From assembly GCA_977862235.1 (NCBI GenBank), contig OZ374564.1:1674001-1738000 (forward strand): DNA of 64,000 nt, read 5' to 3'. Each line of letters opens with the position of its first letter. Position 1 is the first letter of the stretch. Below the pieces are notes generated by a model. The model had not been told where the DNA came from, did not search any database, and saw only the letters and a program-made list of their open reading frames with translations. Positions 6,471 to 57,687 of this stretch are shown here, one piece after another. A program made the translations under genes and the position numbers. The stretch is from Dudresnaya verticillata (lineage: Eukaryota).

Positions 6471-7736
6471 GTCCAAAGCAACCATCAACGTTGGAGCGAG
6501 GAAGAAGATCCGTGAATCACTTATGCAATCTTGAGTAACGAAGCCATTATAATGTTGTAAAGTCGCATCCGTTAGGGGAGAGGAGCAGGACATCGGTAGA
6601 GCGAAAATGTGCCCGTAAAGGACCGGCGTTGAGGTGGTACGCTACGTAGGTGATATGGATTCGGAATAGGTTCTGCGTTTGTGGGGTGTGAAGACCTGGT
6701 GAGCAATACTGGTATTGCTTTTTGGGGTATTCGCCGGATAGAAACTTTACAACTGTTCCTTACGCAACAGAATTGGGCCCAGGCAGAAACCTATGCGTTT
6801 TTCGGCGTACGGTTACGGGAGATATCTGTTTGCAAGGTGGGTTAATATCCATTGACGAAAACTTATACACGTTTTCAGATCTCGCATTATTATTTTCCAT
6901 TAAACTGATATTGGTCTCGAGAGATCCGAAAACCTGTTAGTCAATACTGGTATTGCCTTTTGCGTTCTCTTGTGCGTCTCAAACTGAAACCTATTCCGCC
7001 GCCTCGTACCCGTCGACTTCGAGGGCTCGCTCCCACAGCCATACAGCACACCTGCATCCCCAAGCACGCCGCTTCATGTACCCAGTTCCCGTCATGTCGC
7101 CATCGCAAACCGCCCCTTGGAGGGGCATTTAAAGGCCAACGCGGTGCGAAATGAAGAATTCTGTTCTTGGCAGTCTTGCGTATTGCACTTCAGGTCGGGA
7201 GCGAAGCCTTTCCGAGTGTTCCTGGGTCCACACGGACTCCAAAGTTCTCGCAAAACCCAGCGCAGAGATACAGACTCTTCGAAATTCGAAGAGTCTGCGG
7301 CCCTTCAAGGGAAGCATCCCTTCATATTCTTGCGAAAAGGAACCTTCCTTCCGCGAACTAACACCAATATCGCCACGCATTCTCGCATGCTTGAGCTCAT
7401 CGGAATCGGGATTCTGTCTGTGGTCCGACCGCGGACCTTTATGCGTCCCGAGCACAGACAACATGCGCCGTACGACTTAGAAGGAGCACATCGTGTTCGC
7501 ATACGAACTTCAATCGTCGATCGCGAAAGAAGGAATTTGTACGGACTCAGATCAATGTGGGTTTGGTTCTGATTAGGGTGTACAGACGCGTGTACAGCAG
7601 CCTGTTTTTCTCGTCATAATTGTTCACCACTTTTCTTCACTGCGCAGCATCGTGATCAGCTTTACTTCTACGCAAGTACGTCTCGTGGCGTATTGAGCTA
7701 ACTGCGACAAGAACCGGAACTTTTTCGCACCCAAAC

Positions 7737-8752
7737 ATGGCAGGGGGAGACGAAGGAAGAGCGCTGCAGTGCCTGGCGACGAAAGAACCGGTATGAGAGT
7801 CCCAGAGGCAGCAACGGCGCTGTTCGCGGAGGTGATTGATGGGTCTGTCAACATCCGCGTCGATCCGAAGGCATGCGTCCCGCTGACAGATATACGGCCT
7901 ATTGTCCGTTCTCGTGCTGGAAGACTGAAGGTCATATTCCGCGGAGACCCAAACCCACATTCGGGATCCTCGAACACCGGCTTCGTAGCTGGATCGGACG
8001 CACCGATACTTGTGAAGCTTTCCGGTACTCTACGTCGTTACACCATGACTTATCTCGGAGCCAAGCAGAATCCTGACGGCTCAACCCTCTCGGAGCAGCA
8101 GGTGAAGGAGGCTTATGAAGCGCGTTCTGAGTGGTATGGGATTGTGGACGGGCTGCACAGAGTTACGGCTCTACTCGAACTTTGAGAGGAAGATTACCAC
8201 AAATTGAAACAGTTCGCACTTCCAGTCACCGTGTTGAAAGGAGGGCACAACATTCAATTGCTTCGGCAACTGGCCAGACCTCAGAACAAGAAACATGATC
8301 CCGTGTTCTATATGGAGACGACATGTTTCGATGTGATGAGGGGGCTGAGAGAAGAGGCAGACGGACTGACGGCTCTACGTAATGGGAAGGCCCCAACTTC
8401 TGTCGCTGTCGCACCTGCGTAAGATGGGTGCAAACACCTCACGGATAACACTATTATGCAAACAGCAGGCATGGTACTTCGTCTGCACACGAGAACGATC
8501 GCAGAGCTCGGGAAGATAATGAACGAGGAGTTACCAGAGATGGCCTCGCGTCACCAACTGCACGCTTCCGGGAGTGCTGTGGATAAGATGAAAGCAGTGC
8601 AAGCTGTAGATTGACGAGTGCCCAGGCGTTTCGCACACATATCAACTTTGCGGTCATCACGACCGTTCAAGAACGCAGGGGTTTCCGACGAGGGCGTAGA
8701 AATACAGATTAGGACTCTGTACCATCTGCGGGAACTGTCCAGAGCCCATCAT
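7737..8752 (+). pseudogene. ParB/Srx-like domain gene, paralog A (decayed, 3'-truncated)
   Basis: VDPKACVPLTDIRP...WYGIVDGLHRVTAL (ParB-type DGxHR box). Collinear over ~330 codons with the gene at 9334. In-frame stops at 8183-8185 and 8420-8422. Confidence 0.75.
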
Positions 8753-9333
8753 TGTAAGGGGCGGGCGGAATCGGGCTCAGTCCAAGGATCCCTTGTCACG
8801 TGCGACACTGTGACGGCATGTGGCGCCAACTGAATCAGCATCAGATGCGTGTCGAACAATGGACGGTTGCCCGACAATTGATGGGTGATGCAAGACTGCA
8901 TACTGGGGGATGCAGTTTCAGGGACAGAACCACGAGGTGGAAGTGAATACATGCTAGTAGTCGGTGTGACGTCGGGTCACCTGTTGCGTTTAACATAATT
9001 CCGGCGAAAGCTACTGTCCAAGGACTGCAGACCCCCTCATAGTAGTCACATCCTGGTCGGGTTTCGCAGTCCTGAGACTGGAGCGTTTAGTACCGAGACT
9101 GTAGCATGTATCTGTCCACGATTGGTATGAGCGGAATGCATGCACAATGACAGCGGCTGAGTCACATGGTTTTAATTTAATGCACATTCTTTCTCTCATG
9201 CAGTGGGAAACGTTGTACATGCATGTATGGAGCAAGGGCGGAAAGCTGTGTCCGACAGAGGCAGTAGTCAGAATTCATTCAGACATCCCATCCAGAACTT
9301 CGGCTTACCGGTGCACACGATAGCCTGATAAAT

Positions 9334-12300
9334 ATGCCACCGAAAAAGAAGAAGGGAGTGGCGGTGAGGTCTGTATCCAACACAGGACAGACCTCATCAG
9401 ACATAAGAGCGCCTTTATCATCTGGGAATGATAGATTTCTGTTCGGATATGTCGTTAATGGAGCTACGCACAAGCGAGTTGACCCTCATTCATGTGTCCC
9501 GTTGACCTACGTCCGCCCGATCTGCAGATCGGGCGTCGAGCGATTGAAGCGCATTTTCCGGGGGGCCGACCGGTACAGTTCAGGGACATTGAAGTCTCCC
9601 GTGGAAGTAGCTCCGGACTCTATCGGTTACGTGGCTGGTAGTGATATGCCTGTCGTTGTGCCATTGACAGGGGCATTGAGAAGCCGTCTGTCCGATTATT
9701 TCAGATCACAAACAAGGAAGGACTGTATGCGTCGTTCCGAGAAAGAATTTCAGGACATTGTGAAATCGAGGGGGAAATGGTACGGAGTAGTTGATGGCAT
9801 GCATAGATTGGCAGCTATTTGTGGCATAGACGTCAGGTCGAACTGACGTCTAGCTGCGCTGATCGATCAGTCGCACCCAGACCCGTCGAAGGGTGGTAGC
9901 TGTGGTGGTAGAGCGGTGGTGTCGGCCGCGCGCGCCGTCGACGGTCGCAGATCAACGGCGTCGAAGCCTGAGCGGGCACGGGGCGTACCGTACGCGGGCG
10001 GCAGCGGCCGGATCCCTGCGTCCCCGTCGTGGGGTGGCACGAAGCCGACGGTAGGGAAAGGAAAAGGAAAGCCTAGACGGCTAGGGAAAGAGGGAAGCCG
10101 TAGGGCGAAGGACTGGGAAAGAAACCCAAAGCAGAAAGGGCAAGCCTGACGTAGGCTGGCTTGCCTGATTTACTGAAGCTCAGAGGGGCGACTACTAGAT
10201 ATACTACAGGGCCTGCGGCGGCACCAACCCGGGAGGTGCGCCGGCGCGCCCCAACACGCGTCGACGCGTACGGGTAGCGGTAACCCGGGGGCGCGCGTAG
10301 GCGGAACGGTCCACACGTACTCAACGGCTCGACGCCGGAGTGCGCGCGCGCGTGTCACGCACTCAACGGCTCTGCGCCGGAGTGCGTGCGCACAGCGCGC
10401 GGGACAGCAGGGCGTTCGACCGCCGCTTACACTAGAGGGTGCTGTACACTTACAAAACAATAGACGTAGAAATTACATGGGACTTTCAGTGTCACACGCG
10501 AACGCGTGTACACGTGGGCGCCACTGCGCACTCCCTTACAGTTCAGCGGGGCTTCGGCTCCACCGGCTGACAGCGTGCGCACAGCAGTGCACACGTGGCG
10601 CAGCTGGTCTTACAGCTGCGCGTGCGTGGCACAGCTGGTCTTACAGCTATGCCACACAATTCATGAGCTGCTTGAAGAAAACTACAACCAGTGGAAAACC
10701 TTTTACTGGCCTGTGCTGGAGCTGAACTCGCGGACCGACCTGGTGGTCCTGAAGCAATTCGCTAGACATCAGAATCGTAAGCACGAGGCAAACTGCTTCG
10801 TGGAAACTACCCTGTAATAACACATTGAAGGGTCTGAAAGATGAGGCTGATCGCCTTCAAGCGGAGGGAAATGGTATCAAGCCCACAGCAAAAGCGGTTG
10901 CGTCCGCTTATAATGGGTGTTCATATGTAAGAGAACACAGTGAAGCAGACAGCGCAAGTAGCTCTCCGACTAAGTCATCGTGTCATCGATGCGATAGGGG
11001 AGATATTGGGGAAGAAATACCGCAGCTTGCATTGGCTTCACGAAATGGATGAACTGCTAAATCAGTAGCAGACGATGCCCTGATGTCGTCGATGGACTGC
11101 CGGGTTTTCCGGACGTTTATTACTCTGAACTCACTGAAGGCTGCCACAGAGTTCATGCGCGCGGGCCAAATGAGTGGCGTGGTACATAATGAGGGTGTGG
11201 AAGTCCAGGTCTCGATACTCTACCGCATTCGAGAAGTATGCAGGAGGAACGGGTTCAGGCTCGTTCTTTACGGGGTCACCAAATCAGAGTTCGGGAAGGC
11301 TAAAGATGCGCTAGCAGAGGTTCGAAAATTCGAAGGCCTTCGTGAATCTGAGGACTGGCCGGGTCCCATGGACACGATGCGGAAAATCTTCTGCGATCCC
11401 AAAAGTTTGATGGCGATATCATGCTTAACAGGGGCAACGACACATTGATTTTGCAATGCATTCTGGATATGTACAAGGACTGTTGTCCGGAAGAAGCACC
11501 CCTGAAGATTCACAAGTACAATTCTGTTAGAGATAGGAACAGAAAGGAGTGCGATGAAGAGAAGAATTTAGACCGGGAGTGTGTGAATGAGATTACGACC
11601 GGAGTGCAAGATTCAGGGGGGGTCAATTCCGATCAGGTAACAACTGCTGGAAACAAGGACCATCCCTCTGACGGACAGATCGAACACGATGACGTTCCCT
11701 CTCCTTCTCTGAACGTAGATTCGTTACCTTGCAGTCGAGACCTCGGTTCTACCGGAGACCATCACAATCATGATGCAGAAGATGTACAGGGATCGGCTGT
11801 AAAATCTGCTGTGACGGTGAGCACGGAAAAATCGGAGAGGCTGGCTGTGCGTGGGGACAAGAACGGACCTGACGACCATTTGCAAGCTGATATCTTGAAG
11901 GCGTACAGAATAACCTGCCATCAGATGCGGTGGCAGGTATACAATAAGAATATTAGTGAGGGTGTTGGTGACCTATACGACATAGTTCTTACCGACACAC
12001 CGTATGGAACGCCTGCATCACAGTCTGGTGCAGGGAAACAGTACGACAACTATATGAGTGATTCTGAAATATCCGAGCTTGCAGAAATGTGCAGGAAATC
12101 CGTTGTACCGGGAGGGTGGGTGTTCATGTTCGTGTCCTACCAGACATTCGAACCTATAAGGCAGGCTCTTCTGAATGCCGGATTCACTTGCCCAACGTAC
12201 GCATTTTCGATTGCAGAGGATACACACACGGTGCAGGAGAGGCGAGGAAATGACTGTCCCCAAAATGGCCACGAAATTGCCGTCATGGGAAGAGCCCCAG

Positions 12301-13107
12301 GACAACACCCCAACGGATTTAAAGTGGATCTTCGAAGCCCATATCAATTATTGAAGGCTTCGGAAAAGAGAAAGTTTGCGTGCATGTCTCAAATTACCGT
12401 TTCTAAGAGAAGCTCCTTAAACCGGGTACAAAATCCTCGGTGCTTACTGAAGAGAAGAATGTTCAGCTGTTGGTGGAATTGTTGACGACCTTCTGCCCTG
12501 AGGGGGGGCCATTTTGGACATGTATGCTGGAACGATGACAGCTGCAATTGCAGCCGTGCAGACTGGTAGGAAATGCACCTGTATAGAGCAGAGCCTACAG
12601 ATATATAGGCTTGCAGTTGCACGCCTGAAAAGGATAGCAAGCGATCGTCGCAAGTTGTCGGAAGGAATGGAAGGAACACCACTGTGCCATGGTACAGCGG
12701 AAGAGGCCCTGGGAGAAGACCAGGGAGCGGATGTGGAAAACCCGCAACAGAAACTGCTCAGGAATGAGGCGAAGAAAAATTCGGATTGCATTACTGGCGG
12801 CGATGCAGTTGTTCTGCACGTTGGGAAGAACGCTGTTGGGAAGGCAAAAGTCGAATTCGGGGCAAGTTCTGATGAAAACGTTCGCAAGCAGATTCATCTG
12901 AAACCCCTGTCGGAATACGAAAAGCCAGGACAGGAACTCATTTCGGTGTACGCCTTCGAATGTGATTCATCCTTTGCCACCTCAGCATATCCGTATAACT
13001 TTCATGTCCCGAACGGCCGCCCTTCCACGATTCTAAGTGAGCTAGACGGGTTTTTTGCATGGGATATCCATGCGATGAAAGCCCAGGAGCGGTGCGACCA
13101 GAAATGA
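9334..13107 (+). pseudogene. ParB/Srx domain + beta-class DNA N6-adenine/N4-cytosine methyltransferase + Tnp1/En/Spm-C-like domain fusion gene, interrupted by a solo LTR and frameshifts
   Basis: MPPKKKKG start; WYGVVDGMHRLAAI; reading frame restored after removing 9820-10661. DIVLTDTPYG (motif IV, 11994-12005); EEKNVQLLVELLTTFCPEGG-ILDMYAGTMTAAIAAVQTGRKCTCIE (motifs X, I, II) across frameshifts at ~12410 and in the G-run at ~12502-12508. Confidence 0.85.
9820..10656 (-). mobile_element. Solo LTR (837 bp) inserted in the ParB-MTase gene
   Basis: TGTGGCATAG...CTATGCCACA 10-bp terminal inverted repeat; 5-bp TSD CTATT/CAATT (1 mismatch). Homologous, in inverted orientation, to the LTR at 23791-24558. 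Confidence 0.9.
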
Positions 13108-13558: not shown

Positions 13559-13763
13559 GCAATCGCGTGAAAACCTATCCAATATTATGGAGAATGACCA
13601 ACAGCTTTTCGGAAAGCCGCACGTAAATTTCTATTAAACAGCACATACACTGCACGAGATCTGAAAACCTATGATAGGTTTTCCGAAACGTGAGTGCTCA
13701 TGTGCTGTTTAATAGCTTTTTGAATCTCACTGGTCGAAAAGCTGTTATAGGTTTTGCGATTGC
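13559..13763. repeat. ~205-bp nested imperfect palindrome centred on 13673
   Basis: Perfect arms 13663-13672/13674-13683 (10 bp), 13631-13646/13700-13715 (16 bp) and 13600-13611/13735-13746 (12 bp), all in the same register, plus outer arms AAAACCTAT and GCAATCGC. Confidence 0.92.
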
Positions 13764-14183
13764 CTCGGGCAAACACCTTTTACATAGAAAATACGATTGC
13801 TCGACCCCAGGACCTATTTCATATTATGGAGAATGCAAGATAGCTTTTCAGGTCGTGCGGCATAACTCTCCAGGATTTTTTCCATGAGATTTATCGCTGA
13901 TTCCCTTCTCGGACTTTTCTTTCGGAACACCTGGGTCCCTCCACCCGTCCGGTTGCTGGCCAGCGCCCTCCGAAACGCAATCGCAACGGAACCGCCGCGT
14001 TTCGCTACAACCCCCTCCCGCCCGCCCCCCGCGTCTGGCGCCAGGTCGCGCTCCACCGCACCCCACCGACCCGCACAACTACTGTGTTTCCCGTCGCACT
14101 GCCGCATCACGCCCCGGAAGCTACATTGGGGCCTTTTTATGCGTTGCGTGCAGTCCAGATGGAAAGCATATCGCCACGAGCGG

Positions 14184-15606
14184 TGAAGATGATCTGGTTT
14201 CGATCTGGTGCCCTTCAGAGGAGCGGCTGGTTGCGTGGTTAGAGAAGCATACGTCTCGGTTCAGTGCAGTGGCGTGGGACTCATCTCTAAGTGCACCCGA
14301 CCGGTATCGCATCGGCAGCACAGGGCAAGATGCGAAGCGGTTGCTGTGAGATTTTGCGTTGGATGTGTTGTATCACATATCTCCGCAATCAAGACTTGGC
14401 ACTGGTGTGGTAGGGTTGCGTAGCTACGTACGTGATGTGAACAACACGCCCAGCGCTGCGACCTCCTCTGCCAGCAGTACGAATGGTCCTGTTGGGAATG
14501 GCTCGGCGTCTGGGAAGCAAACAGTGGAGCGCAAGGCGAGCATGCTTTCTCGGCTGCGTGGAAATAGCCAGTTCTATCAGTGCGACTTTGACATCGCTGA
14601 CAAATACCCCTCCATGGTCCCGGATGCAGACGTGCTCGTGGTGATGATACAGATGTTCGACACACTTGCTAGTCAGGGCAAGTTCCACGCGAAGCTTCTC
14701 TAGAGCATCAGGAGCTACAACATCAAGGTCAGCAACATGGTCATCATGGATGCCATCTTCCGCGTGTGTGGCCTACCGGACGAAAAGCTTCGGACCATCT
14801 GCTCTGCGGTCGACAAGCTTGACAAAGAGAGCTGGGAGAATGTCAAGGAGATGGTTGTGGATAAGGGACTGGATGAAGCCGCCACCGACAAGATTGAAAC
14901 GTTTGTTATGCTGAACGGCGACCCGTTGCAAATCTTAACGAAGTTGCGCGAACAAGAGGAATTGGCAGAGGTCTGTGGCGAAGCTCTTGATGTAATGGAG
15001 AAGCTTTTCAACTTGGTGGCATTCATGCGCGAGGGGCAACCGCAGTGGTTTTCGTTTCATCTCCCGCTCGCTCGTGGGCTCGACTAATACAATCGCGTCA
15101 TTTTCGAGGCGGTCTTGATCGACAAGAAAACGAGCTTGGGCTCCATTGGCGCTGGGAGTCGCTATGACAATTTGGTGGGAATATTTCGTAAGTCGAGTAT
15201 ACCGTGTGTTGGGTGCTCTCTAGGTATTGAAAGCATAATGAATATGATGGTCCAGGCTGCGCAGAAACAGGCGGCAGCGGAGTCGGTTGACGGGAAGGGA
15301 AAGGTGCGCGACGACGATGGATGTGCTTGTTGTGACGGTCGGAAAAGGAACTATGAAGCCCAGACTGCGGCTTTCCGCAGAAAGCTGGCGCGCCGGGGTT
15401 TCTATTGAGTTTTGCTTCTATGATAATGGACAATGGGAAAGCAGGTGACGCAGGCCATTACTCAAGGCATTAACCTCATGGTGGTTATCGGAGAGGACGA
15501 GATTGCACAAGGTGTAGCAAAATTTAAAGTGCTGGCGACAAAGGCCGAGCAGACCATCCCAAGGGGAATACGGCCCTGTATTAGCGCCCTTTTTAGAGAG
15601 GAGTGA
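14184..15606 (+). pseudogene. HARS: Histidyl-tRNA synthetase pseudogene, eukaryotic cytosolic type, internally deleted
   Basis: [84 protein letters not shown], and anticodon-binding VVIGEDEIAQG. Several stops; motif 1 and the start of motif 2 are absent. 5' boundary approximate. Confidence 0.92.
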
Positions 15607-16799
15607 TCATCGTTCATTGTCGTCGTCGATGCTCTTTGAATGGACGGCATCCCGAATTGCTGTTCAACGCGAGATTTGTCTTCTTCGTGGGCCCAGTTCG
15701 TTTTTGACTCACCATGTCCGATGTTTGTGGTCAAGCACGATCAGCGATTTTGAACCCACAAGACAAGCAAGCCCGGAGGAAGTGAGTTGGTGTGAGATAT
15801 ATGTAAGTTGCAGTATTGGCTTGAAGTTGTCGAATTTCTGGTGGACTCACCTTCGTCATCTTAACCTAGGAGAACCAGTTCAATCACTCTCCAACCCATG
15901 CGCTGAGCTATTTTATTTGCTCAGGTCGCGATTGGGTCGGCTTTGCAGGTGTCCAAAGTGTCCACGCTAGGACAGCCGTATGAAAATATCAAAACAGTAA
16001 TGGCAGCTCACCGAACAGGTAACCTTATATGTTCCTTGCGCCGTTTAGACTCGTCTTGAGGAAGATCTGCATTTTGGCAAGGGCTCATGCCGTGGGCCTG
16101 CACAGAGGCGGTAACGAAGGGAAGACTGCCTATCTTTGCGCAGCATGAGATAAAGAATCTCAAACGATAGGTGGGGATGGGACGTTTGCTTCTAGTGCCA
16201 CCGGCGGAATGGGTAGTGGCGTGTGCCAAGGCTACTACAAAATGGGTTTCTGTACGTTCATGCAGACAGTTCAAGTAACAAGAACAAAAGGCGTTGGCGG
16301 TGGGCAGAAGAGCTGCATAGCTGTGGCTAGTGACATCTTGCGAAGGGAAGGAATCCTAGGGATTTACAAAGGCGTACGCCATTGACGTCAATGCTGTAGC
16401 GTTGCGGCAAGCGACGAATTGGGAATCTCACTTTCGGTTCTGCAGAGTTGTTGAGTCCATCATCCGCAGGAAGGATGGCGCCTTTTGATAGTGTCGTAAG
16501 GTATCATACTTTTCAATCACTGGCAGACTCACCTCTGGGATCGTGCAACACAATTCGAGAGAGACTTTTCTCAGCCTCATTGCACTCTTGCAACTCCTGT
16601 GGCGTGTCGGGAAAGCTCCGAGTACGGGGATCTACAGTTAGATGAACGGAGTACCGGCTTTGGCGAGCAGAGCGAGGCGGACGCGGTGTGGTAGAGGGGC
16701 ACGGCGGAAAGGCGCGCACAAAGGCCCGGGCGGTGCTGTGCGCGCAGAGAGATTTACTAATGGCGGTTATCGTGCCATAACGGTTTCGGAGCAGGTCTT

Positions 16800-17341
16800 T
16801 TAGGATTCGTAGCGGGAGGATCGTGGGCTGGCTTGGGCCTCAACGGATGTGATCACAGTTTCCTGGGCGAACATTGCCTGCGATAAGGCCAATTTGACAC
16901 TGCGATGAACTCGGTGAAAGACACTGCCAACCATGCGCAGAGCCGCTCGCTGCAGACGGGCAACCAGCTGACTTAGCTCATCCTGAGCGCTCCTAAGTTG
17001 CTGGAATTCTTCTTCAAGCTCAACGAGTCGCGCTTCGACATCTTCGACACTTATGTCATCCGTTTGCATCAGGCTTGTTTCGTGACTTCAGACTCCTCTT
17101 TTCTGCGGGCAAGGTGGCGCTGCAAAGCCGCGATATGTACCCTTGCTTCTGTAAGTTTCTCCTGGATGAAGACAAGCAGATGGTTGATTTGACACACAAC
17201 TGGCCACCCTAGTCGTTGAAGCTCACTCGACAAGTACGATACCGTCTCCCGAATGGTCCTGATCTCCCCCTGTAGTGTAGCTATTCTCTCCTGAGCGGAA
17301 TGCAGCCTCCCTTCTATTGTCTCTTGATACATTTTGTGCAT
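16800..17341 (-). pseudogene. Coiled-coil protein of unknown function, split by a frameshift at ~17069
   Basis: Two abutting ORFs with heptad-like composition (IATLQGEIRTIRETVSYLSSELQRL; VEARLVELEEEFQQLRSAQDELSQLVARLQ). Confidence 0.45.
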
Positions 17342-18113
17342 AAGGTAGAGTCTGGAACGTTTGTCTCACGGCGAACTTCAAATTTGCAGACTGGTACTTG
17401 ATGCACAGTTTGGATCATGTTCGCAAACTGGTGAAAATCCAGCTGTAGCCCACGGCGGCTCATTGGATTGACTTGTCCTTCTTCTGCAAGAAAAATCAAG
17501 GGGTATCGAGACGTAAAAATCAACGCAGCCGGCAGCCGGGGTCGTACTTCTCAGCCTCTCTCGATGCTATTTCTTATCCTTGACGCCCATCAATACTACC
17601 CGCTTGTGGTCGTGTGGACGCATGGCGGAATAGAGCAGTCTGCAGGGCGTACCCTTGCAATACCGAGTACTGCTTCTTGATTGACGGGGACTCGAGATTC
17701 GCAACTTGTCCGTTCTGATTGGTAATATGGCACGCTCGTCTCTCGAATCAGACTGTTTTGTTCGCACTGGTGCTATAGTGTATGGCGGAATGGAGTGGTG
17801 CATACAGAGCTAGAGGGAAGCCCTTCCAATACCAGTCGTTTTAACTGCGATCCGTAGCAACTCTGGGCATGCGCAAGCCTGTCATGCAGAACGCCCCGCC
17901 GCCACTGGAACAGTATTATATCGGTGTCGTTTCAGAAGCGCCCTCGGCCCTCCCGAATATTTCAGCTCTTCAGAACAAGTAGCGCACAACTATCGCGCCC
18001 TAGCGGGAACATCGATTTTGTTGCTTCACTTCGCCCGCCCTGAGTGCAAGGAGCATCTTGCACTAGTGAATTGCAAAAGGCTCAGACTCCCCTGCCGAGA
18101 GGGGTAGTAGGAC

Positions 18114-21100
18114 ATGGCCCAAGCCTCATCTGGGCAGGTTTGGAAAGCAGCAAACGTTCCAGTTCAGAACGACGACGACTTCGGCGATGAGCTGCTTCCT
18201 GGAACAAAGCCCGGCGCACGAGTCATGCTCACTCTCAACGAGGAACACGTTGCTACAGCAACCCTGCTACGACCTCATGATTTTAGGGAGGGTGCCGTTG
18301 ATCCCAGTGGTCGATTCAGCACATACCTGCACGGGCGCAACCTTGGGCCTCAACAACGTGATGGAGAAGTATGGGTTGTAGTTCACCTCGTGCGATGCCT
18401 CCACAACTGCAATTCCTACGAAAACCCGTTCCAGTACAAACCAGACAGTACGCCTTGTCTGGAGACGCTGAGTCGAATGCAGACTGGAAAACACGCCTGG
18501 GACCTATTCCAGATTGAGGATCTCATAACCATCTACAATACAGAGCGCAGAAAAAGCTCAGGTGCAACTGTATCCGGAGTGGAAAAACATGCGGTGGCTG
18601 ACGCTAGCCCACCAACACCCCCTCTGCTCAGGGTTCGCAAACCCGCTCCTCACCCAAAACAGCAGCATGGTGCGGAAGAAATGGAAGCGGTGAACAGCCC
18701 TTCAAAACCACCGCCAGAGAAAGGCAATGAAGAGGAAGAAGTCACAAAACTTCTACAATACACACCTGTACGCCGGCCACCTATGCGTGAACGACCCCAA
18801 AAACCATCCAAGAATAACGTCCCGGACGCCTTACCAGTCTCTTCGGCCCCAGTGTCTCTTGAACCCACGACTACACCCGTGGAAGAGAGAGATCCTCTTG
18901 TAGGCGTGACAGACAGAGGCGATGCAGATCTGAAACAAAACTCTGCTAGGGCTGTCGGATCTATTCCTTCTCGAGGAAAAGGAGCAAGCGACGAAGAGAA
19001 CTGTATCACGCCCCAGCCATGCCCTGCACACAATGTCAGACGTACGCCTGAAAGCAGTTCGGGGTTTAGTAGTGGCGCACCAGAACCCGACCCTGATGCT
19101 ACCCCGGCGTTGGCCGCGAGTACTAACACAAAGGGTGACGTGGAACGAACGCCAGGTGCTGATGGCTCGGAAATAGAGCACGGTGAGGAGCAATCAGATG
19201 CTGCGACGTTGGATCTGGTGAGCGATGTAGAGGTGGAAGGTGGAAGTGATGGAATATTAGAAGACGAAGATACTGGAAGCGACCAGGAAATAGAGGACCT
19301 CACCAAGGACGCGGATTACGTGCCAAATGCGACAATTTCACGAAGACGCACGGCAGCATATGAGGCTGAACGGGTCCCGCAAACGCCCAGAGTTGCTGAG
19401 GATGAGACCAATGGCTCCCGAAAAAGAAGGTACCGCTTCTACGCAAGACAAAGAAATAAGTTGAGGGTTGGTGATACTGCGTTGCAAAAGCGTCGCAATG
19501 CTGCTCTGGAAAGGCTTGATGAATAAGACTGGGGCTCAAAGGAGTGCTGCATGCGGAAGCAATGCTTCAAGAGGGTATCGATTGTGTACATGAAAGCCGA
19601 GATTCGCAAACTGTTGTGTATGGACGCCCATGATCGACGAAACTATTTGCACGGGTTGTTGCAGCGACCGGGATGGAATTATTACTTCGACGGTAAGCCA
19701 GTATGCTACACGTTCCTGGAGACGGCGTTTGGGTTTTCCAGGGACCTACAATATTCAGTCAAACAGTTTGGTGGAAGCCGGCCTATGGAGGGTGACAATG
19801 CCGTGCCGTATCAGCCTCCGAGTGAGGGCAGGGATAAGATACTAAGTTACCTCAACCGGCTTGCTGAGATAACAGCAAGCTGCATGCCCGACGCAGATGA
19901 AAAGCATCTGCCGTACTTTGATAAGGCTGCGGTCTACGAGAACTTCCTTCTGGACCAGGAGAGACTGTATCCTGGAAAAGATCCGCCTCGACTAAACTGC
20001 TCCTACCACGTCTGGAAGCACCACCGCAGTGATATAAAAGTCCGCAAAATCCAACGCTTCACAAAGTGTTCGGAGTGTGAAGAATTTCGCGCTGGACTTG
20101 CCAGGGCCGGTACAAACCGCAGACTTGCGGAGCCGTTCCTGCTCCGTAGAAAGGAGCACTACAAGCTGGTTACAATGGAGAGGGTGTACTACAGGGAGAA
20201 TACGGAAAAAGATACTTTGTATCCCTCCGAGTACTGTTCACTGATAATTGATGGCGCGGACCAGAAAGCAATCAGAGTACCAACATTCGTGGTCAGCACG
20301 AAGGCTACGCGTGGACATGCCATGGCAACCAAAGTTGTGGGCGCATTGGAACACGGTTCATTGAAGCACCTATCCCTGTTCGTCATGACAGGAGCGTTTC
20401 AGACCGGCGCGAATGACATGATCGAAACAGTCCATCGCCTTCTCACAGTCAAGCATAACCATGGCACTCTGCAGCCTACGTTGTTACTGCAGCTAGACAA
20501 CTGCACCCGGGAGAACAAAAATAAGTACATGCTTTCTTACCTGGAGTGCTTAGTCGCGTGGGGTGTTCTGCATGAAGTGCAGGTTTCCTTTCTCCCAATC
20601 GGCCACACCCATTCCGACATCGACCAGGTCTTCAGTTGCACAAGCAAGAGGGTCCGATCAAAAGACATGACGACCATGTCTTGCCTTCTCCGCGAACTAA
20701 GCATGTCATACACGCCTCGTCCATCGGTGGCAAGGTTGCTGCAGGTAGCCAACTTTTCCGGGCTGTGTGACAAGTATGCTTGTATTGGCAAGACTAAAGC
20801 ATTCTCACACTACAGATTCTTTCGAATTACTCGCCAACGTGGGAAGGGAATGGCCAGAAAAGCGAGATTCCGCACGCGATGCCTCGTCAAGATTCAGTGT
20901 GGAGATGAGTGGAAACCACTTGTAACAGAAGCACGTGGCAACTCTCTCAAACAGGAAGGCTTCATACTATTCACCCCTGACCTCGTTAAGACGCCAGAGA
21001 CCATAGCGCGATGCCCACCTGATATGAAGGAGGTCAATGATGGCATACGTTGCACCGAAGTCCGAGCGCTCAAGGCGTCGCAGATCGTCGAACTGGAAAA

Positions 21101-21596
21101 TCTTAGGGATCACGTCTATAGAGATCGAAACGAACCATTTCACTGGGACTTGGGTCACGCCCCGGAGACGAATGGGAAGCTGCGAAGGGACAGTAGACAG
21201 CATAGAGACCCCGAAATGCTTCCGGAGATACAAGAAGAGGAGCAACTACCCGCACAGGACCTAACCTACAACCACAACAGAATGGTGGCCGTCAATTATG
21301 TTCAGGCAACCGAGCAATGTCCCTTTTACGTGGCAAAAGTGATAGAAGTTGTGAAAGGGGACGATGGAAAGGTTTCGAAATTGTTGTTGCGGTAGTATGA
21401 AGCCAAGCACACCGGTAATGTTTTCAGTGCAGCTTAGAAACCTTCGTTCTACAAAACCAGGCGCGGGGTCGCAAAGGAATGGGAAGAAGACGTCACCGTT
21501 GATTGCGTACTTGTGGAGTTCGAGGCCCTTACCAGGAATGGCAGGCTACCAGTTTCTGTGCAGAAGAAGTTGCGCGAGTGCCTTCACAAACAGTAG
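18114..21596 (+). pseudogene. Sola1-like (DUF7869-type) DDD transposase, ~1160 codons with three in-frame stops
   Basis: ORFs 18114-19526 and 19551-21395 share one frame, which continues to TAG at 21594-21596 (stops at 19524, 21393, 21435). FTKCSEC zinc motif, IIDGADQ, LQLDNCTRENKN, FLPIGHTHSDIDQVFS. Confidence 0.85.
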
Positions 21597-21766: not shown

Positions 21767-22283
21767 CGCGAAATTGGTACTGTGCGAGTGGTGTGCGGTT
21801 CCTTGCCTTGCAATGTAAACCTTGCAATGTAAATAGCGGGGTTTGTTTGGTCAGCGTTGCAAAAGCGTTTGAGGCAAGGCACACCGGAAGCCATTTGAAG
21901 TTAGAGCGGTTGATGTCGCGGTCCAGCACGTGATGAAGTTTCAGCACTTCAGCAGTTGGCGTCGACGGAAATGAAAACACGCGAAATTGTTGTTGTGCAA
22001 GTGATTGTTATTTGCCTTGCAATGGCAATACGAGGGCAATGATAACACGCGAAATTCTTGTTGTGGGAGTGATTCCTATTTGCCTTGCAATAGCAACACG
22101 GGGGTAATGATAACTCGCGAAATTGTTTTCGTGCGAATGGATTGCGTTGTTTGGCTTGCAATGGCAATAGCGGGGGCTGTTTGCGAAGCGATGTAAAAGC
22201 GACTGACGCAAGGCGCACCGAAAGCCATGCGCAGGTAGAGCGGTTGGTGTCACTCTGCAGTACCTGATGCAGTTTCAGCACTT
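21767..22283. repeat. 68-bp tandem repeats (CGCGAAATT at 21980, 22048, 22116) inside a diverged ~180-bp direct duplication
   Basis: Exact 68-bp periodicity; 21767-21949 aligns with 22116-22283, both ending AGTTTCAGCACTT. Confidence 0.85.
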
Positions 22284-23790: not shown

Positions 23791-24558
23791 CGTAGTATAG
23801 CTGTCAGCACCCCATCAGCAGCGGCTGTAAGGGGTGCGCAGCTACTCACTGTAATGGTGCGCACGATGACGCTCGCTGGCAGGTCGTGGTTGGGCAGCGT
23901 GCCCTTAGCTTTTTCGTTGATTTTGGTGGCGATCGCTCGCCTTACTGTCGGCAGCGGCGGCGCGCCGTGCCGCACACGGCGCGCCGCAGTGGCGTTTGCT
24001 GGCATCGAACCGTTGAGAGGGCCCCTGCCCGTTACGCCCCGCGCGCGCCCATGGGTATCCGTTACCCGGACGTGTCGACACGTGTATGGGCGCGCGCACG
24101 CACACCTCCCGCGTTGGTGCTGCAGGGCATACCCACTGTAGAGTAACCGTAACGTACATAGTGTAGGGTATTTAAGGCCGTCTTCCATCGACGGCTCAGT
24201 AAACCGGGCAAGAAACAGCTCGCGCTGAAGCTTGCTCCCATCGTCTTCGGGTTCGATCCCTTTTCCTTTACGCCAGCGGGCGGTTGTCCTTTTCCCCTTG
24301 CCTCGATAGGCTTTTCTTTTTCTTTCCTTTCCGTCCGCTTCGTGCCGCCCTTCAACAGGGACGCTGGGATCCGGCCGCTGCCTACCCGCGTACGGTACGC
24401 CCCGTGCGCGCTCCGGTATCGACGCCGTCGATCCGCACCTGTGGGGTACATACGGCCGACACCGCTCTACCACACAACAGCTACCCATCTACGGGTACGT
24501 GTGACGGCTTTGGACCAGCGAGTATCAGACGTCGGATCGACCCGACGTCTATACTACA
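23791..24558 (+). repeat. Orphan 3' LTR (768 bp) preceded by a polypurine tract
   Basis: CGTAGTATAG (TG mutated to CG)...CTATACTACA termini; GAGGGGGG at 23780-23787; no TSD match; homologous to solo LTR 9820-10656. Confidence 0.8.
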
Positions 24559-25656
24559 GATCCCAGTTTGGGTCTACAGCCCTGCAACGACGAGAGAACC
24601 ATTCGGGGCATCTTTTTGCGTGTGTAGGCCGGTGTAGGGTTGGAGCCCGTTGGAGGTAAACGCCGCCATATGCTGAGAAGCTCCGCGCCCGACAGCCGAG
24701 ACGATTGCGCCAAGAGGGGCGGTGTTGGGCACTTGGAAGGGGACAAATTCGGAGTTAACGACGAAGTTAGGCTGCATGGCGCGCACGTTGGATAGCAATG
24801 GAAGGGCATGTATGGTAATGGCTGCAAGGGTGAGGGTGGTGTGGCACAGGTGGGCGCCCACAGGTGCGGGTGGGTGCGGGTGGATGCGGTTGAGTGCGGG
24901 TGGGTGCCGGTGGGTGGGGCTGAAATGGCCCGCGTCTTGATTTGATCCGATCCCGTGCTGGGCCGCTCTCCGGCGGCGCGCGCGCGAACATATTGCAGTG
25001 TTTCGTATTGCTGTCAGTCTCGCGCGCGCGTGGTTTCACCGTAACCGCTGGGCGGCGGCGTCACCCACACTTCACCCTTACCCCTGGGTTGCACACACAA
25101 GTGGGTGCGAACTTCCACGCCTCAGGGTGGGTGACCAATGCGCATGCACCAAGTACTGGTTCTTTGAGTATAGAGTAAATCTATTGGTCGGAAACTCAAA
25201 CCTATCAGCGATTGAGTATGCTACATACTGAATATACAGCGCTTAGCCCGATTTTTGGTTCAGTATACAGTGCAACTATGGGCCCGCTAGGAGTTGACTG
25301 ACGCCCACCGCACCCCGGGTGCCACGTTACAGATCCCTTGGATTTCGACAGAATAGGCATGCGCATTTCGAGTCCAATTGCAAATGCGGCCTTTTGGAAC
25401 CATAGTAGAGTTTCTCTAATAGCCGTTTTTAATTAACAGAAAATGACACTAAACGCAGGCATATTTAGTCCATTGCACCAGACATCGTTTTAATTAGGAA
25501 CGCTCACATCAGTTAAAATGTATGCTATTTTGCGTTTGTCTCGAAAACGACTGTTTTAGTCAGTGCGACCCAGCCGGAGCACACTATCTTTCTCGACTGT
25601 TCAGATCCGCCGAGAGGCTTCCCTCCCTTCTGCCTCCTCCGGTATCTCCCGCCATC

Positions 25657-26558
25657 ATGAGTTCCGAGTCGCCTTCCTCGGGCATCAAGTCTCCATCCGC
25701 ATCACCTCCCCCTGCTTCCCCTCCTGCACACGCAGCCCCTCCGCCCACCCTAACTCCCTTGAATCGCCTTCTTCTCGCCCTTCGTCTGCAGCGTCAGCAG
25801 CGCAATCAAGCGTCACCACTCCGTCGACGATACCCTCTTCATCGCGCGAGTCTCGCTTCGTTCCCAACAAAGTCGAGCGCGCTTGGCTTCTCACGCAGCT
25901 GGCCGTCTTAGGCGCTCCTGTACAAAAAGGGAGAACGCTTGAGGCCACGTGCGGACAGGTTGCAACAATGGCTCGCTCGCGTCACGTCAACGATGCATTA
26001 ATTGTTCAAGAGCAGCAATCCTGTGGTATGTCATGGAGGCGGGACTACATGGCTGCGACCAAACCAAACAACGTCCTCTACATCGCTTCTATAGCCTTGA
26101 AGCAAGCTAGACAGGTCATCGTTGCAGAGAAGGTGGACGAGGATGGAAGTGCTGGTGAGGACAACATAGAATTTGCGGCGGTTAGGCCTGGTCGTAAGGA
26201 AGGTGACGCCCAGAACGTTTTAGACCAGGCTCTCCTCCTGTATAAGGCCAAGGCCGCGAAGCGCATCTCTACATCTGCAGACGGATCTGCAAAGATGCTG
26301 GCACGTCGCCAGGAATCCCGCAAGGAGAAGGCAGAAAGGTTGCAGAAGAGGAAAAGAGCGTACGAGGCGGAGAAACAGAAGAAGGAAGATGCAAAGAAGA
26401 AGCGAGACGACGAGCGCCGTGCTGCCGAGCGCCGAGTCCTCCGCTTCGGTCGCCTACGGCTCCCTACGCTGCGGACTTTGCGCTCGCCGCTCCGCGCGCC
26501 GCTCGGGCGAACAAGAAACGAGGCATTTACTTTAATTCGACAGCGCAGTTCTTTCTAG
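25657..26558 (+). pseudogene. Harbinger companion ORF (expected Myb/SANT-like DNA-binding partner), probable frameshift near the 5' end
   Basis: Position opposite the transposase; Ser/Pro-rich start, AWLLTQLAVLGAP...CGQVA segment and a highly charged helical tail. The Myb fold is inferred from context only. Confidence 0.55.
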
Positions 26559-27734
26559 TTTCTCTTCGTAGCGCGATCGAGGCTGCAGTGCATACCCGCG
26601 AGCGTCAAATACCCAGTTGGATACCATGCAGGCGGTCTGGTACGCTAGAGGGAATAGCTCGTCCTCAAATGCCCAGCGCCCCAGGAACAATCTATGTCTG
26701 TTGTTTATAAAGCCAATCCCCCATTCGTTCACCATGCGTTGCTTCCTTATATCGCGATTATGTGCCACTCGGTACATCCAGGATGTGCTTTCGTTGCGCT
26801 TATACGGCACAACGATACCCCCGTCGCCTGAAAACCCCATGTCTGCCATGCCGTGCTGTGCACCAGTCAAGTAGCTCTCTCGGTTCTGGTACACATCCGA
26901 CTCCGTGTAGAGTGTGCGGTCAGACTCCGCACCCTTGTCGGTGACCTCAACGCGTATGAAGCGACCAAAGAGATCGCAAAAGACGAGAATAGAGAAACAG
27001 TGTGCCTTCTTATATCCACCGTACGCTCTTTCCTGTGCCGCTGCGTCCTTCGGTCTCCACCTCTTGTTTTTGTTTCCGCCCACGAAAAACACACAGGACG
27101 GAAACCCTATCACAAGCCCTTCCATATCCTTTCTCTCTTCGTGTCCCGGGCATCTAATCAGCGCCGGGGACAGGTCGTCCAAAGCTTTGTGCAGTCCGAC
27201 GAGTACATGTCGGAAGTAGTTCGATATGGAGCCGACAGAAAGCCCATACTTCAGAGCGACGTGTTCCAGCCCTTGCCTTCCCTCGTTCGCACCGCCTAGA
27301 ATGTCGAAGAACATGAATAACATTTCTACAGTACCAAGTTTGCGCTTTCGTGGCGTCCGCAGGACAGCGTCATTCTCGGCGCGCACATTAAATGCCTTCG
27401 CCAGTTCTTGTTGGCAGACGCCATGAAGAGCGTCAAACGTTTCGCGGGAAAGATGCGTGATCTTCTCAAAGAGGAGTATGTCGGCATCTATCTCGCGCAC
27501 AAAGTTATAAATTCCGGAAGCTGCTCTTCGAACATATGTTGCCTTTTTTCCATCCACACAGTTGCCCCGTCCAGGCCCGACTTGTTCTTCTTCGTCCGAC
27601 GGCTCGTCTGCTGGTAGGCGGTTTGAAAGGGAGGAAAAATGGAGGAGAAGGTTACTGGTGTGCTGCAGCTGGGCCTGGCACTGTTGGAACATGGCCAGAG
27701 CTGTTAGGATGTCGCCCTCGTCGTCAACGCTCAT
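26532..27734 (-). CDS. PIF/Harbinger (HARBI1-like, DDE_Tnp_4-type) transposase, 400 aa; first catalytic Asp appears mutated
   Basis: GFPSCVFFVGG (expected IDG), YGGYKKAH, GAESD, MADMGF, VVPYK, HNRDIRKQRMVNEWGIG. Confidence 0.9.
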   Translation of the reverse strand: MSVDDEGDILTALAMFQQCQAQLQHTSNLLLHFSSLSNRLPADEPSDEEEQVGPGRGNCVDGKKATYVRRAASGIYNFVREIDADILLFEKITHLSRETFDALHGVCQQELAKAFNVRAENDAVLRTPRKRKLGTVEMLFMFFDILGGANEGRQGLEHVALKYGLSVGSISNYFRHVLVGLHKALDDLSPALIRCPGHEERKDMEGLVIGFPSCVFFVGGNKNKRWRPKDAAAQERAYGGYKKAHCFSILVFCDLFGRFIRVEVTDKGAESDRTLYTESDVYQNRESYLTGAQHGMADMGFSGDGGIVVPYKRNESTSWMYRVAHNRDIRKQRMVNEWGIGFINNRHRLFLGRWAFEDELFPLAYQTACMVSNWVFDARGYALQPRSRYEEKLERTALSN

Positions 27735-28487
27735 GACTGATGCTCCCCAGCACGGTGGACAGGAATGCGGAGCTCACAGGGCCGGGCGTGTTTACTTCGT
27801 ACAGTACTGAATCTCGACTATTTCCCTACTAATAAAAAATAATAAATGGACGTGTTTTGGGGGCATTAGAAATAGCATCTCTTTGCGGTAATTAAAAACA
27901 GCTAATAGCGTTTAAAATCTTAAGTGCGGACTACAATAATAACATTGAAGAGTATAATGGAGAGCATAAATTACTTAGGCCATTATTCCTTCACAGTGGT
28001 AACAGTACTGGGATGCAGTGCTCTGAAGTTGAGAACAAATCTGCTTCTCTTCCCAATGCCTGCTCACGGCTAAGGACAAACCGCAAATAATCATAGCCTT
28101 CCTGGAAACATCAGGCCATTCCATATCCCTCTGGCTATTAAGGTGAACAACTGCATCTGCAACGGGGGAAAGAAAAGGAATCTTTGTAGGGTTTTCAACC
28201 GCCCCCTGGAGCCATCCACGGTAGCCATCCAGTCGCCCTGCTGGATCTTCTAAGGCATTAACGCCTCGCAACGGAGCTTGTACGCATCCTTAATCTTTGA
28301 TATTATGAATTGATACGCAGGCTGAACCTTATCTGTAGAGTTGGCTAGAAAATTCCGAAACTCGGTGTTGATGTTTCCGAGAGCGTCATGAAACGCATCG
28401 CTTTCATTATTCTCAGGGCAATTATCCACATAAAAATGCGCATCTGTTGATTAGGCAATGCCTTGAGCTTTCAAGTTTCAAATAGAT

Positions 28488-29699: not shown

Positions 29700-30014
29700 G
29701 AAAACAAGCGACGACGTGGGGAAAGACTTTGTGAGAAGCTGGACTGGTTGGCGCTCATATCCCCTTGAGAACTGTTCGCGGCTTGAGTGAAACCTGTTGG
29801 TGAGCGCAGATCCCATCCCATCTTGGGTTACGGTCATCCTGGTAACGGTTGGAATTGTCCCTGTCGTAGCCGTTAACGGAGACCATTTCAACATACGATA
29901 TATCGGTCGTTCTCTATACTTTCGATATAGTCTCTCGTTTTATCAAGAGGTTTCCGTTGCGCGAAGCCCCTTATTCAAATTCACGTATCATTATTAATGA
30001 TCTGGGATCAATAC
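29700..30014 (-). repeat. 3' terminal direct repeat of the DIRS-order element
   Basis: Roughly 90% identical by eye to 34025-34230 + 46603-46701. Confidence 0.9.
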
Positions 30015-30053
30015 CAATTTTGAAATGCCAAAAGGCCTACGAGGCTTCGGAGG

Positions 30054-31364
30054 TTACAACAAGTGACCGAAGAAGAAAAAGGAATCTGCGGATTGTTGCA
30101 CACGGGCATCAACATACTTGGTCTCGAGAGTCTTCGAGTTTGGAGTCCAATCGCCCCACACTTTCATATGGTAGATTGGGACGGCGATTGCGGCGCATTC
30201 GGACGCTGCGGCAATGCGGAGGGAGTGAGATGTCCAAGAGACGCGAGGTGGTGCAGTGACTGATATGCGCTTGAGGCAGAAGTTAAGCCAAGAGGTAACC
30301 AGTCGTGCGGAAGGGGTGTACCGGGAACCCGGGAGAGCCCATTAGTAACTGCTTTGTGAGCGGATCGAGCGCCTGATGCCGTCATATCGAACGAGTACGG
30401 CGATAGGGCTTTCACCGAATCTCGGGTTGCGGCGATACGACAGGATGTGTGGTATCGTGGTCTTATCCTTGCAGAGGCAGACGGCGAGGTCGACTGCGTT
30501 GAGCGTGACGCGTATGTCGCAGAGCTTGAGGGCGGTGCTCGACTCGCCACGCGCGAAGAGCAGTAGGCTGGTGATGACAGCCGTGGCGTTACGGATGAAG
30601 ATGAGGTCGTAGTCTGGAGCGGCGGTAGCCACTTGTAAAATTCTTCGCATAATTGTTGCAGGGATCGGGCGGCGTTCATTGACGGCGTCTGGATTGTCTG
30701 CTATCTTACGGTCGTGATCGGCGGTTTCGTAGGCAGCGAGTGGAAGTTGAAGAAGCGGGGTGTATTCGAGCGAAACCCCCTCTCTGGCGTGGTTGGTGGC
30801 GACTGCTGAGATGTAGTTGCGAACTGAGGCACCTCCGACTTTATTGGCGTCGAATAGGTAGCCGAGGTATCGGAGAGGCGAGCGTTCGTCTCCTTGATAC
30901 GGGTCGAGATGTTCCAGTCGACAGAAAAGAAGCCAGGTATTGAAGACAGACTGGTTGGAGCGCCAGGTTTTGGGGGCACGAGCCTTGTAGATGATACTGG
31001 GTACTGAGGCGCCGCCACCCGATTCTCCCAAGCTAGATTTGATGATTATTGATTGTCGGAGGACGTTGAGAGCCAGAGTGTCGTTCTGATTTCCCAAATT
31101 GCAATCTTCCAAGGTGGAGCCGGCATGTGCGGCCCGGCCCAGATTGGAGGGAGGTAAACCGCTTGTGCGTCGAACAGCACTGGTTTTGTTAGTCCTGACA
31201 GAGGGGCGCACTAGGACTGGGCGGGCCAGAATGGCGTGGCCAGAAGACCGGTCGCTTGCTCTTGTAATATCTTTGTCGTGACCAGAGGGAGCAGCTTGAG
31301 AAGACGGTTCCAGAAGTTGTTTGCGCCTGACCAGTGCTGCGTCAGAGCGTCTACGGTGAGGCAA
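30054..31364 (-). pseudogene. Tyrosine recombinase of the DIRS-order element (one in-frame stop at 30342-30344)
   Basis: SAM-like N domain (WLLFC...YLGYL...VRNYISAV), LLLFARGES (catalytic Arg), then past the stop SHSLRIAAAS (HxxR), WGDW and KYVD (catalytic Tyr). True start codon uncertain. Confidence 0.92.
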
Positions 31365-35127: not shown

Positions 35128-35133
35128 TCTTTT

Positions 35134-35151
35134 TGGTCTCCCGACCTAGAA
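35134..35151 (+). promoter_or_regulatory. Primer-binding site of Gypsy element 2 (probably tRNA-Tyr)
   Basis: TGGTCTCCCGACCTAGAA, 6 nt after the LTR. Confidence 0.82.
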
Positions 35152-35291
35152 GGCCGTCAAGGTAGAAGAATCTCCGTTGGACTCCGCTTCGGTAGGAGGT
35201 CAGCTTCGTGACAACTCCGTATTGGTGTAAAGGCAGGACAAGGCAAAAAACTCGTTGACTCCGTTTTGGTAACCTACGAATAGAAGAACAA

Positions 35292-54194: not shown

Positions 54195-54218
54195 TTCGGC
54201 CTTACTTACAGAATCCCT

Positions 54219-57667: not shown

Positions 57668-57687
57668 ATTGCCACACGTTTCGGGAG

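Follow-up and report, generated by a model that had tools for sequence, protein, structure and literature searches.

A degraded ParB-like/methyltransferase fusion gene in Dudresnaya verticillata belongs to a transposase-linked family in which the canonical catalytic motif is often missing

Structure and decay of the fusion gene

The 64,000-nt stretch of the Dudresnaya verticillata genome analyzed here (hereafter the window; GenBank assembly GCA_977862235.1, contig OZ374564.1, positions 1,674,001 to 1,738,000) carries at positions 9334-13107 a degraded gene whose product combined a ParB-like region, a helical region, a beta-class DNA amino-methyltransferase (MTase) domain and a C-terminal beta-rich domain. 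Inverted-repeat arrays, a partial paralogue and a degraded DUF7869 transposase gene lie nearby (Table 1). The gene was recognized in an original prediction made from the sequence alone, and all features named there (the start MPPKKKKG, the VVDGMHR box, the helical region, DTPY, motif I and the C-terminal domain) were located; the N-terminal paralogue and the transposase were not mentioned in it.

The frame opened by MPPKKKKG at 9334 reaches VVDGMHRLAAI at 9819, where an insert resembling a solo long terminal repeat (LTR) begins. This insert has 10-bp inverted ends (TGTGGCATAG/CTATGCCACA) and flanks (CTATT and CAATT) that are alike at 4 of 5 positions, and an inverted relative, 66% identical, is found at 23928-24558. 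Excision of the insert with one flank copy rejoins the reading frame directly (...LAAI joined to HELLEEN...) and leaves 2929 nt, or ~976 codons, close to the ~970 originally announced. These codons are distributed over seven successive frames, and the six corresponding frameshifts, placed with tblastn, are more than the "few" breaks first described. Stops within the gene coincide with frameshift junctions, and the terminal stop codon is at 13105-13107. Since the pieces align in order to P0139, an intact protein of 1003 amino acids (35-85% per piece, sum E 9e-114, tblastn), the arrangement is not due to chance; the gene is also collinear with intact relatives of 890–1050 amino acids.

Within the MTase domain, motif IV reads DTPY (GAC ACA CCG TAT, 11994-12005), EEKN..LL.ELL.TFCPEG is found at about 12450-12505 and motif I (DMYAGT) at 12517-12534, so that motif IV (11994) precedes motif I (12517), as in the beta class. 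DTPY does not conform to the canonical [DNS]PP[YFW]. In the MTase-domain tree, the window sequence groups with six proteins to form a starred clade. Five of these are DPPY-intact by alignment (P0010 likewise), and this clade retains DPPY, motif I and DGxHR together. DTPY is therefore likely to have decayed from DPPY, the motif from which the original prediction placed it one base away and which close intact relatives do read in alignment and tree. With its motif altered and its frame broken, the copy is dead and cannot write N6-methyladenine (6mA).

The upstream paralogue is 38% identical to the N-terminus of the main gene and 49% identical to P0139, and is thus either an old duplicate or a second member of the family. 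The gene, this half-duplicate and the transposase are all decayed in the window copy.

Table 1. Features of the locus and of two distant loci (window coordinates unless a locus is named)
Feature	Position	Strand	Basis or remark
Mirrored array, more degenerate, 5' of the paralogue	6690..6990		Inverted match to the 3' array
Tandem paralogue, ParB + helical half only	7790..8761	+	MTase half absent; three in-frame stops
ParB-like / helical / beta-class N6-MTase / C-terminal beta-domain gene	9334..13107	+	Pseudogene; collinear tblastn to intact P0139 and P0002
Basic start MPPKKKKG, resembling a nuclear localization signal (NLS)	9334..9357	+	Sequence
ParB/Srx-fold domain, split by the LTR; VVDGMHR at 9787-9807	9439..10787	+	Family hidden Markov model; homologue model
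Solo LTR-like insert, 837 bp	9820..10656		10-bp terminal inverted repeat; 5-bp flanks 4/5 identical
Conserved helical region, first part weakly like a helix-turn-helix (HTH)	10822..11525	+	Family profile; homologue model
Beta-class amino-MTase domain	11889..12648	+	Pfam and family profile; homologue model vs CcrM
C-terminal beta-rich domain, ~100 amino acids	12790..13086	+	Family profile; also N-terminal in some partner transposases
Inverted-repeat array, candidate binding site	13570..13850		Just 3' of the 9334-13107 gene
Decayed host-gene pieces: WD40, histidyl-tRNA synthetase, mitochondrial carrier (weak)	14101..16600	+
DUF7869 DDE-type transposase pseudogene	18111..21596	+	Three in-frame stops; Pfam; shared beta-domain at 18207-18518
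68-bp tandem repeat, 3.1 copies, possibly subterminal	21963..22177		3' of the transposase
ParB-like + MTase (DPPW) + SET gene, intron-containing	L176:4404-8887; L178:4516-8790	-	AT-richer eukaryote

Family architecture, catalytic motifs and predicted folds

An exhaustive search with positions 11352-12482, a query that excludes the ParB part, returned 134 hits at E<=1e-3; a word-indexed search with the MTase piece gave no longer relatives, and the MTase alignment had no matching locus in metagenome_contigs. The family proteins themselves were the source of the domain profiles. Among the 47 hits of at least 780 amino acids, 45 combine all three regions (ParB, helical and MTase). The N-terminus is missing from another, and the last, the glycoside hydrolase/Ig-repeat protein P0051, is a spurious hit that was removed from motif counts. 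Because the query lacked the ParB part, the fusion is a property of the family and does not result from two separate insertions, the eventuality against which the original prediction had staked itself. The C-terminal domain is found in 15 of the 45 relatives with full architecture. In support of the NLS-like reading of the start, 17 of 46 long relatives have a basic cluster within their first 30 residues, against 8.6% of random windows.

Canonical catalytic motifs are often missing. [DN]PP[YFW] is present in 13 of 47 long open frames and absent from 34, and 20 of these 34 also lack a canonical motif I (the N-terminally truncated P0009 was left out of this 47-frame analysis). Catalysis has therefore not been retained by all lineages, many of which, judging from their sequences, keep the protein without its usual active site. 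On a tree computed with the motif columns excluded, motif IV requires five changes, at least four of them forced by starred branches, and a deep clade of 20 members is entirely devoid of the canonical form. DGxHR, a box of the G-x-x-R type associated with nucleotide binding, is present in 16 of the 47 long members; a coupled loss of motif IV and DGxHR, suggested by raw counts (Fisher p 0.004), is unproven, as a sign test on independent pairs gave p about 1.

As for the product, the serine-first, N4-cytosine type of motif IV (SPP[YF]) occurs at 0 of 92 aligned sites, which makes N6-adenine the likelier target wherever the enzyme is live and leaves N4-methylcytosine (4mC) without motif support. 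N4-cytosine enzymes with a D-first motif IV do exist as exceptions, so 4mC is possible. Among the 30 relatives scanned with Pfam, most intact ones matched PF01555 above cut-off; no SET or 2-oxoglutarate (2OG) oxygenase domain was found in these relatives or in the window gene.

The dependence on an S-adenosylmethionine-dependent MTase fold, acknowledged in the original prediction, finds support in the AlphaFold model of P0139 (predicted local distance difference test score, pLDDT, 78.6). This model matches CcrM (Z 23.8), M.BceJIV (22.8), M.MboIIA (22.4) and then M1.HpyAVI, followed by rotifer N4CMT (Z 19.7) and PvuII (Z 19.6), and a permuted beta-class fold is predicted for the MTase half. Similarly, the model of P0139 residues 1-287 (pLDDT 90.6) matches PadC (Z 9.4, root-mean-square deviation [rmsd] 2.8, 97 residues), pNOB8 ParB (Z 8.7, rmsd 4.0, 176 residues), and sulfiredoxin and KorB (Z 7.6). 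As the top 8 VIA rows and the top 10 Foldseek rows are all chains of the ParB/Noc/KorB/Srx fold (Z 5.6-9.4; E>=0.0098), a ParB/Srx core is predicted for the N-terminal half. The announced fusion of a ParB-fold domain with a beta-class amino-MTase thus appears real, the predicted folds matching both classes. Residues 175-245 of the model weakly match HTH domains (Z about 4), a stretch also covered by the pNOB8 ParB alignment. No Pfam match to ParB_N was obtained in the family, the weak hits being to DndB, DGQHR and GmrSD_N.

Association with a DUF7869 transposase

Family members also match positions 18114-18530, which form the N-terminus of the 18111-21596 transposase frame. The C-terminal domain of the MTase protein is N-terminal both in the window transposase and in 7 of 120 transposase records, which supports the description of this domain as transposon-type. 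Two fragments containing it gave no Pfam family at E<=10 (with one weak SSL_OB hit in P0030), there was no usable Atlas hit, and the matches of the whole P0139 model in the fold search did not extend to it; the domain may resemble the C-terminal domains of plant CACTA TnpA proteins. The transposase conserves the acidic motifs D (IIDGAD), D (LDNC) and GHTHxDxD, which we take to be Sola-like, and had no match in PDB. The family is carried by DUF7869 DNA transposons, probably of Sola1 type to judge from these motifs and from the parallel with an Ectocarpus element described below. A close relative of the transposase, P0230, is labeled as a protein of a Bacteroidota metagenome-assembled genome (1951-bp contig), a bacterial bin into which algal DNA has probably strayed.

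A scan with the transposase alignment identified 76 loci (and no locus in viral_contigs). Among the 12 closest, the three with at least 2.9 kb of upstream sequence (L160, L163, and L169) all carry a ParB-MTase gene head-to-head with the transposase, the other nine having at most 1.6 kb upstream. L163 is an 8182-bp contig that contains just these two genes, with a long open MTase frame reading AIPS at motif IV beside an intact-looking transposase. In the distant, intron-containing L176 and L178, an MTase (DPPW) + SET gene is tail-to-tail with the transposase; the ParB-like exon of L178 is a weak family match (probability 30%, E 5e-4). The MTase gene is thus on the strand opposite to the transposase in these five loci, and co-oriented with it in the window.

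Contig sizes extend this association. Of 11 MTase records on contigs of at least 7 kb, seven are on a contig of exactly the same size as that of a transposase record, against 0.04 expected; among shorter contigs, the figure is 2 of 32, against 0.5 expected. These identical sizes, together with the transposase beside the gene in sister loci, bear out the idea that the gene travels with a mobile element. Over 10 pairs of genes (the window, three loci and six pairs matched by size), MTase and transposase divergences are correlated (Spearman 0.76, Mantel p 1.5e-4), the two trees differ at one weak node, and the pair nearest to the window is the same for its MTase as for its transposase. Part of this signal could come from shared host history, yet the two genes still track each other among L160, L163, and L169, which are under one public assembly prefix.

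The segment at 14101-17110, between the accessory gene and the transposase, contains host-like pieces and a minus-strand coiled-coil frame, and possibly results from a Pack-type capture. For its histidyl-tRNA synthetase piece, identity is 69% (68% coverage) to a Chondrus crispus protein and, among named hits, 46% to Porphyridium and 41% to Galdieria, which points to a florideophyte red alga as the likely host.

Inverted-repeat arrays

About 460 bp 3' of the stop codon begins an inverted-repeat array that includes a perfect 21-bp palindrome (GAAAACCTAT-G-ATAGGTTTTC, 13663-13683). Its score of 87 exceeds the maximum of 200 shuffles (43) and is reached by 0 of 314 other 400-bp windows. The array 3' of the gene is the top-scoring window in all four loci tested (the window, L163, L176, and L178); 0 of 38, 39 and 43 other windows, respectively, reach the scores of the last three. 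The L163 array may be subterminal, while those of L176 and L178 are internal, between the two genes. Upstream of the paralogue, positions 6857-6943 align in inverted orientation to 13683-13595, with a score of 26 where 200 shuffles reach at most 16. Repeat units are spaced by 238-239 bp in the window arrays (6690/6928 and 13573/13812) and by 239 bp in L178 (4095/4334), which may reflect either coincidence or a conserved geometry.

Origin of the fusion

At least 159 phage and bacterial loci, a sample among the matches listed, match the MTase domain only: 0 of the 159 match the ParB, helical or C-terminal profiles. The Pfam scan took in 16 of the 20 long prokaryotic frames, and because 4 of these 16 phage or bacterial frames are ParB_N + N6_N4_Mtase fusions, the architecture has prokaryotic precedent. 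In the unrooted MTase tree, 52 family rows are separated from 36 prokaryotic and viral rows by a long branch (support 100), and no prokaryotic donor was identified among the phage and bacterial matches listed. As regards the prokaryotic or phage origin originally proposed, the fold class makes a prokaryotic ancestor likely, but the family is not nested with phage ParB-MTase fusions.

Other elements of the window

The window consists of transposon-dense eukaryotic DNA, with Gypsy pol, chromodomain, reverse transcriptase (RT) and DDE hits. A chromodomain Gypsy element at 34453-46118 has 675-bp LTRs that are 98% identical and contains an 878-codon minus-strand frame (42555-45188) with no Pfam match, and another Gypsy element at 53880-59424 has 317-bp LTRs that are 99% identical and a frameshifted pol. 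At 25560-27773, a DDE_Tnp_4 (Harbinger-like) transposase on the minus strand is tail-to-tail with a 332-codon frame without Pfam hits. The 29700-34231 element, which we take to be possibly of DIRS/Ngaro type, combines a minus-strand RT and long overlapping frames, flanked by 208-bp direct repeats (90%) and by a 113-bp segment that recurs at 46598-46701. Finally, 60338-62815 holds an RT frame of 826 codons resembling a long interspersed nuclear element.

Discussion

We interpret the 9334-13107 copy as the dead accessory gene of a two-gene DUF7869 transposon, the intact product of which would bind the array of its own element, methylate nearby adenines and so keep the element self-marked and expressible; we give this interpretation a probability of about 58%. 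The basic N-terminus would direct nuclear import, the helical region would read palindromes in the manner of a parS site, and the ParB core would bind nucleotide, then dimerize or spread along the element. The MTase would then write 6mA in cis, the C-terminal domain could link the accessory protein with either chromatin or the transposase, and the mark or the bound protein might counter silencing or license transposition.

Several observations weigh against this interpretation. We infer each of its functional steps, activity, binding and expression alike being predicted. [DN]PP[YFW] is missing from 34 of 47 long members, including the one beside its transposase in L163. The ParB likeness is one of fold only (best Foldseek E 0.0098; Z 7.6-9.4), and the box motif, DGxHR, is nearer to DndB/DGQHR by weak sequence hits. 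The gene is present at only 5 of the 76 transposase loci, the other 71 being mostly short, and it is also missing from some distant loci (e.g., L184 and L221) whose flanks span 3-10 kb; furthermore, 6 of the 10 gene pairs rest on identical contig sizes and not on read contigs. In the window itself, the two genes point the same way and are separated by 5 kb that contain host-gene pieces, whereas those of the sister loci are head-to-head; moreover, a search for a terminal inverted repeat or target-site duplication around the pair found none. Finally, the arrays were picked once repeat tables had been inspected, and they differ in sequence from one locus to another.

The missing motifs could instead mean that the protein acts above all as a DNA-binding helper without catalysis (a scaffold, an anti-silencing factor or a reader), methylation being ancestral and dispensable. 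We consider this possible, if clearly less probable than self-marking: the five tree changes and the 20-member clade point in its direction, as do the concentration of most invariant residues in the N-terminal and helical parts and the long open AIPS frame next to an intact-looking transposase. Against it, DPPY, motif I and DGxHR are jointly retained in the window's own clade, and some non-canonical motifs (DIPY, DLPY, DPAY) may remain active.

A different question is where the element ends. The two ParB genes might form a non-autonomous unit of their own, ~7.2 kb long (6.7-13.9 kb), between the mirrored arrays at 6690-6990 and 13570-13850, the transposase being a separate insertion of the same family; the host-gene pieces between the genes and an orientation unlike that of the sister loci would fit. 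However, no target-site duplication or clean terminus was found, arrays are internal to the two-gene loci L176 and L178, and the window MTase and transposase share their nearest pair, so that we regard such a unit as unlikely; it would in any case alter the boundaries of the element and not the nature of the gene. A Gypsy element interrupted at about 6520 has no continuation within the window.

The original prediction also offered the locus as a candidate source of 6mA or 4mC in the host genome. This is not supported, as the copy is dead, no SPP[YF] occurs among the 92 sites and most members lack the canonical catalytic motif. A host-domesticated MTase providing genome-wide 6mA or 4mC would be consistent with the beta-class fold shared with rotifer N4CMT (Z 19.7) and with the NLS-like start, but the copy is broken in seven places in a transposon-dense window and its relatives are many, divergent and transposase-linked, which makes domestication very improbable. 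As for bacterial or prophage DNA, from contamination or very recent transfer, the fusions in 4 of 16 phage or bacterial frames recall it, but the eukaryotic LTR with its flanking duplication inside the gene, the family profiles matching 0 of 159 listed loci and the branch support of 100 make it scarcely credible.

Returning to self-marking, we tentatively extend it into a scheme in which a lineage of eukaryotic cut-and-paste transposons uses ParB/parS-like self-recognition. Arrays would serve as loading sites for a nucleotide-gated clamp that spreads over them and lays down a 6mA self mark; several lineages would independently have dropped the catalytic motif while keeping the protein entire, as a binding or reader module, and the beta-domain would shuttle to the transposase and tie the two proteins together.

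Comparison with known systems

ParB-MTase genes in transposons are already known as a kind, having recently been noted in Ectocarpus, with related accessory genes in Bostrychia. Sola1-1_Ec32, a 21.5 kb Sola1 transposon of Ectocarpus, carries a gene for a 1104-amino-acid protein with ParB-like and N4C/N6A DNA-MTase domains, for which its authors propose self-binding and self-modification (PMC12477816). The likeness, drawn from descriptions only, lies in the union of a ParB-like domain and an N4/N6 MTase in one transposase-linked chain of ~1000 amino acids. The Ectocarpus gene is on the strand opposite to its transposase, as in our five other loci and unlike in the window; moreover, it represents one family in a brown alga, and the parts of that paper available to us make no mention of a domain shared with the transposase, of co-divergence or of catalytic loss.

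In red algae (Bostrychia and others), Plavaka elements carry PAG2, an N6-adenine methylase with SET, and PAG3, a ParB-like protein with 2OG oxygenase; inverted-repeat arrays lie beside PAG3, and accessory genes move among transposon families (bioRxiv 10.1101/2025.02.11.637652). Our family resembles these, as far as they are described in the portions at hand, in being transposon cargo with MTase and ParB-like modules and an array beside the ParB gene. PAG2 and PAG3 are two genes of EnSpm/Plavaka elements, whereas the window ParB and MTase form one chain, without SET or 2OG, next to a DUF7869 transposase. SET is confined to the distant L176 and L178, whose gene unites the PAG2 (MTase + SET) and ParB-MTase architectures.

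Phage terminase loci encode ParB-linked N6A MTases, and the permuted M.MboIIA-like fold constitutes group 1 of a published classification (PMC4738411). Both ParB linkage and permuted fold recall our family, but the eukaryotic ParB-HTH fusion reported there is a chlorophyte-type Dam (group 2), and clade 6 is unpermuted, unlike the window family; a permuted, ParB-fused, red-algal transposon clade was not found in the accessible part of that paper. CcrM, M.BceJIV, M.MboIIA, M1.HpyAVI and rotifer N4CMT share the fold and the order of motif IV before motif I (Z 19.7-23.8), but are 14-20% identical and lack the ParB, helical and C-terminal domains. In rotifer N4CMT, which acts for the host in transposon silencing, motif IV is SPPY and a chromodomain is present.

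Retrotransposons carrying DAM encode prokaryote-like adenine MTases, with which higher levels of 6mA and of expression are associated (bioRxiv 10.64898/2026.05.21.726589). These are retroelements with Dam-type domains, for which ParB is never mentioned in the sections available, whereas the window family is DNA-transposon cargo. VANDAL elements provide a case of anti-silencing, in which the transposon protein VANC binds its own element (cited in bioRxiv 10.1101/2025.02.11.637652); VANC removes 5-methylcytosine, while the window family would write 6mA.

Whether DNA transposons mark their own DNA to evade silencing is an open question, for which VANDAL is the one case cited in the part of the Bostrychia paper seen. 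The Ectocarpus and Bostrychia papers propose self-marking for ParB-linked accessory genes, with no test found in the portions at hand. Our literature searches yielded no paper testing ParB-MTase accessory proteins or describing catalytic loss or the shared domain, and no mention of DUF7869 (nor was a red-alga passage found in the part of PMC12695648 consulted). Material for such tests is now to hand in the form of intact DPPY members, motif-less controls, the compact ~8-kb two-gene L163 and candidate arrays, and 6mA in red-seaweed repeats could be transposon-written. Although the 9334-13107 locus is itself an ordinary dead copy, the present analysis adds to these known systems the breadth of the family, the parallel divergence of its MTase and transposase genes, arrays that are candidate targets, and catalytic-motif loss in 34 of 47 long members.

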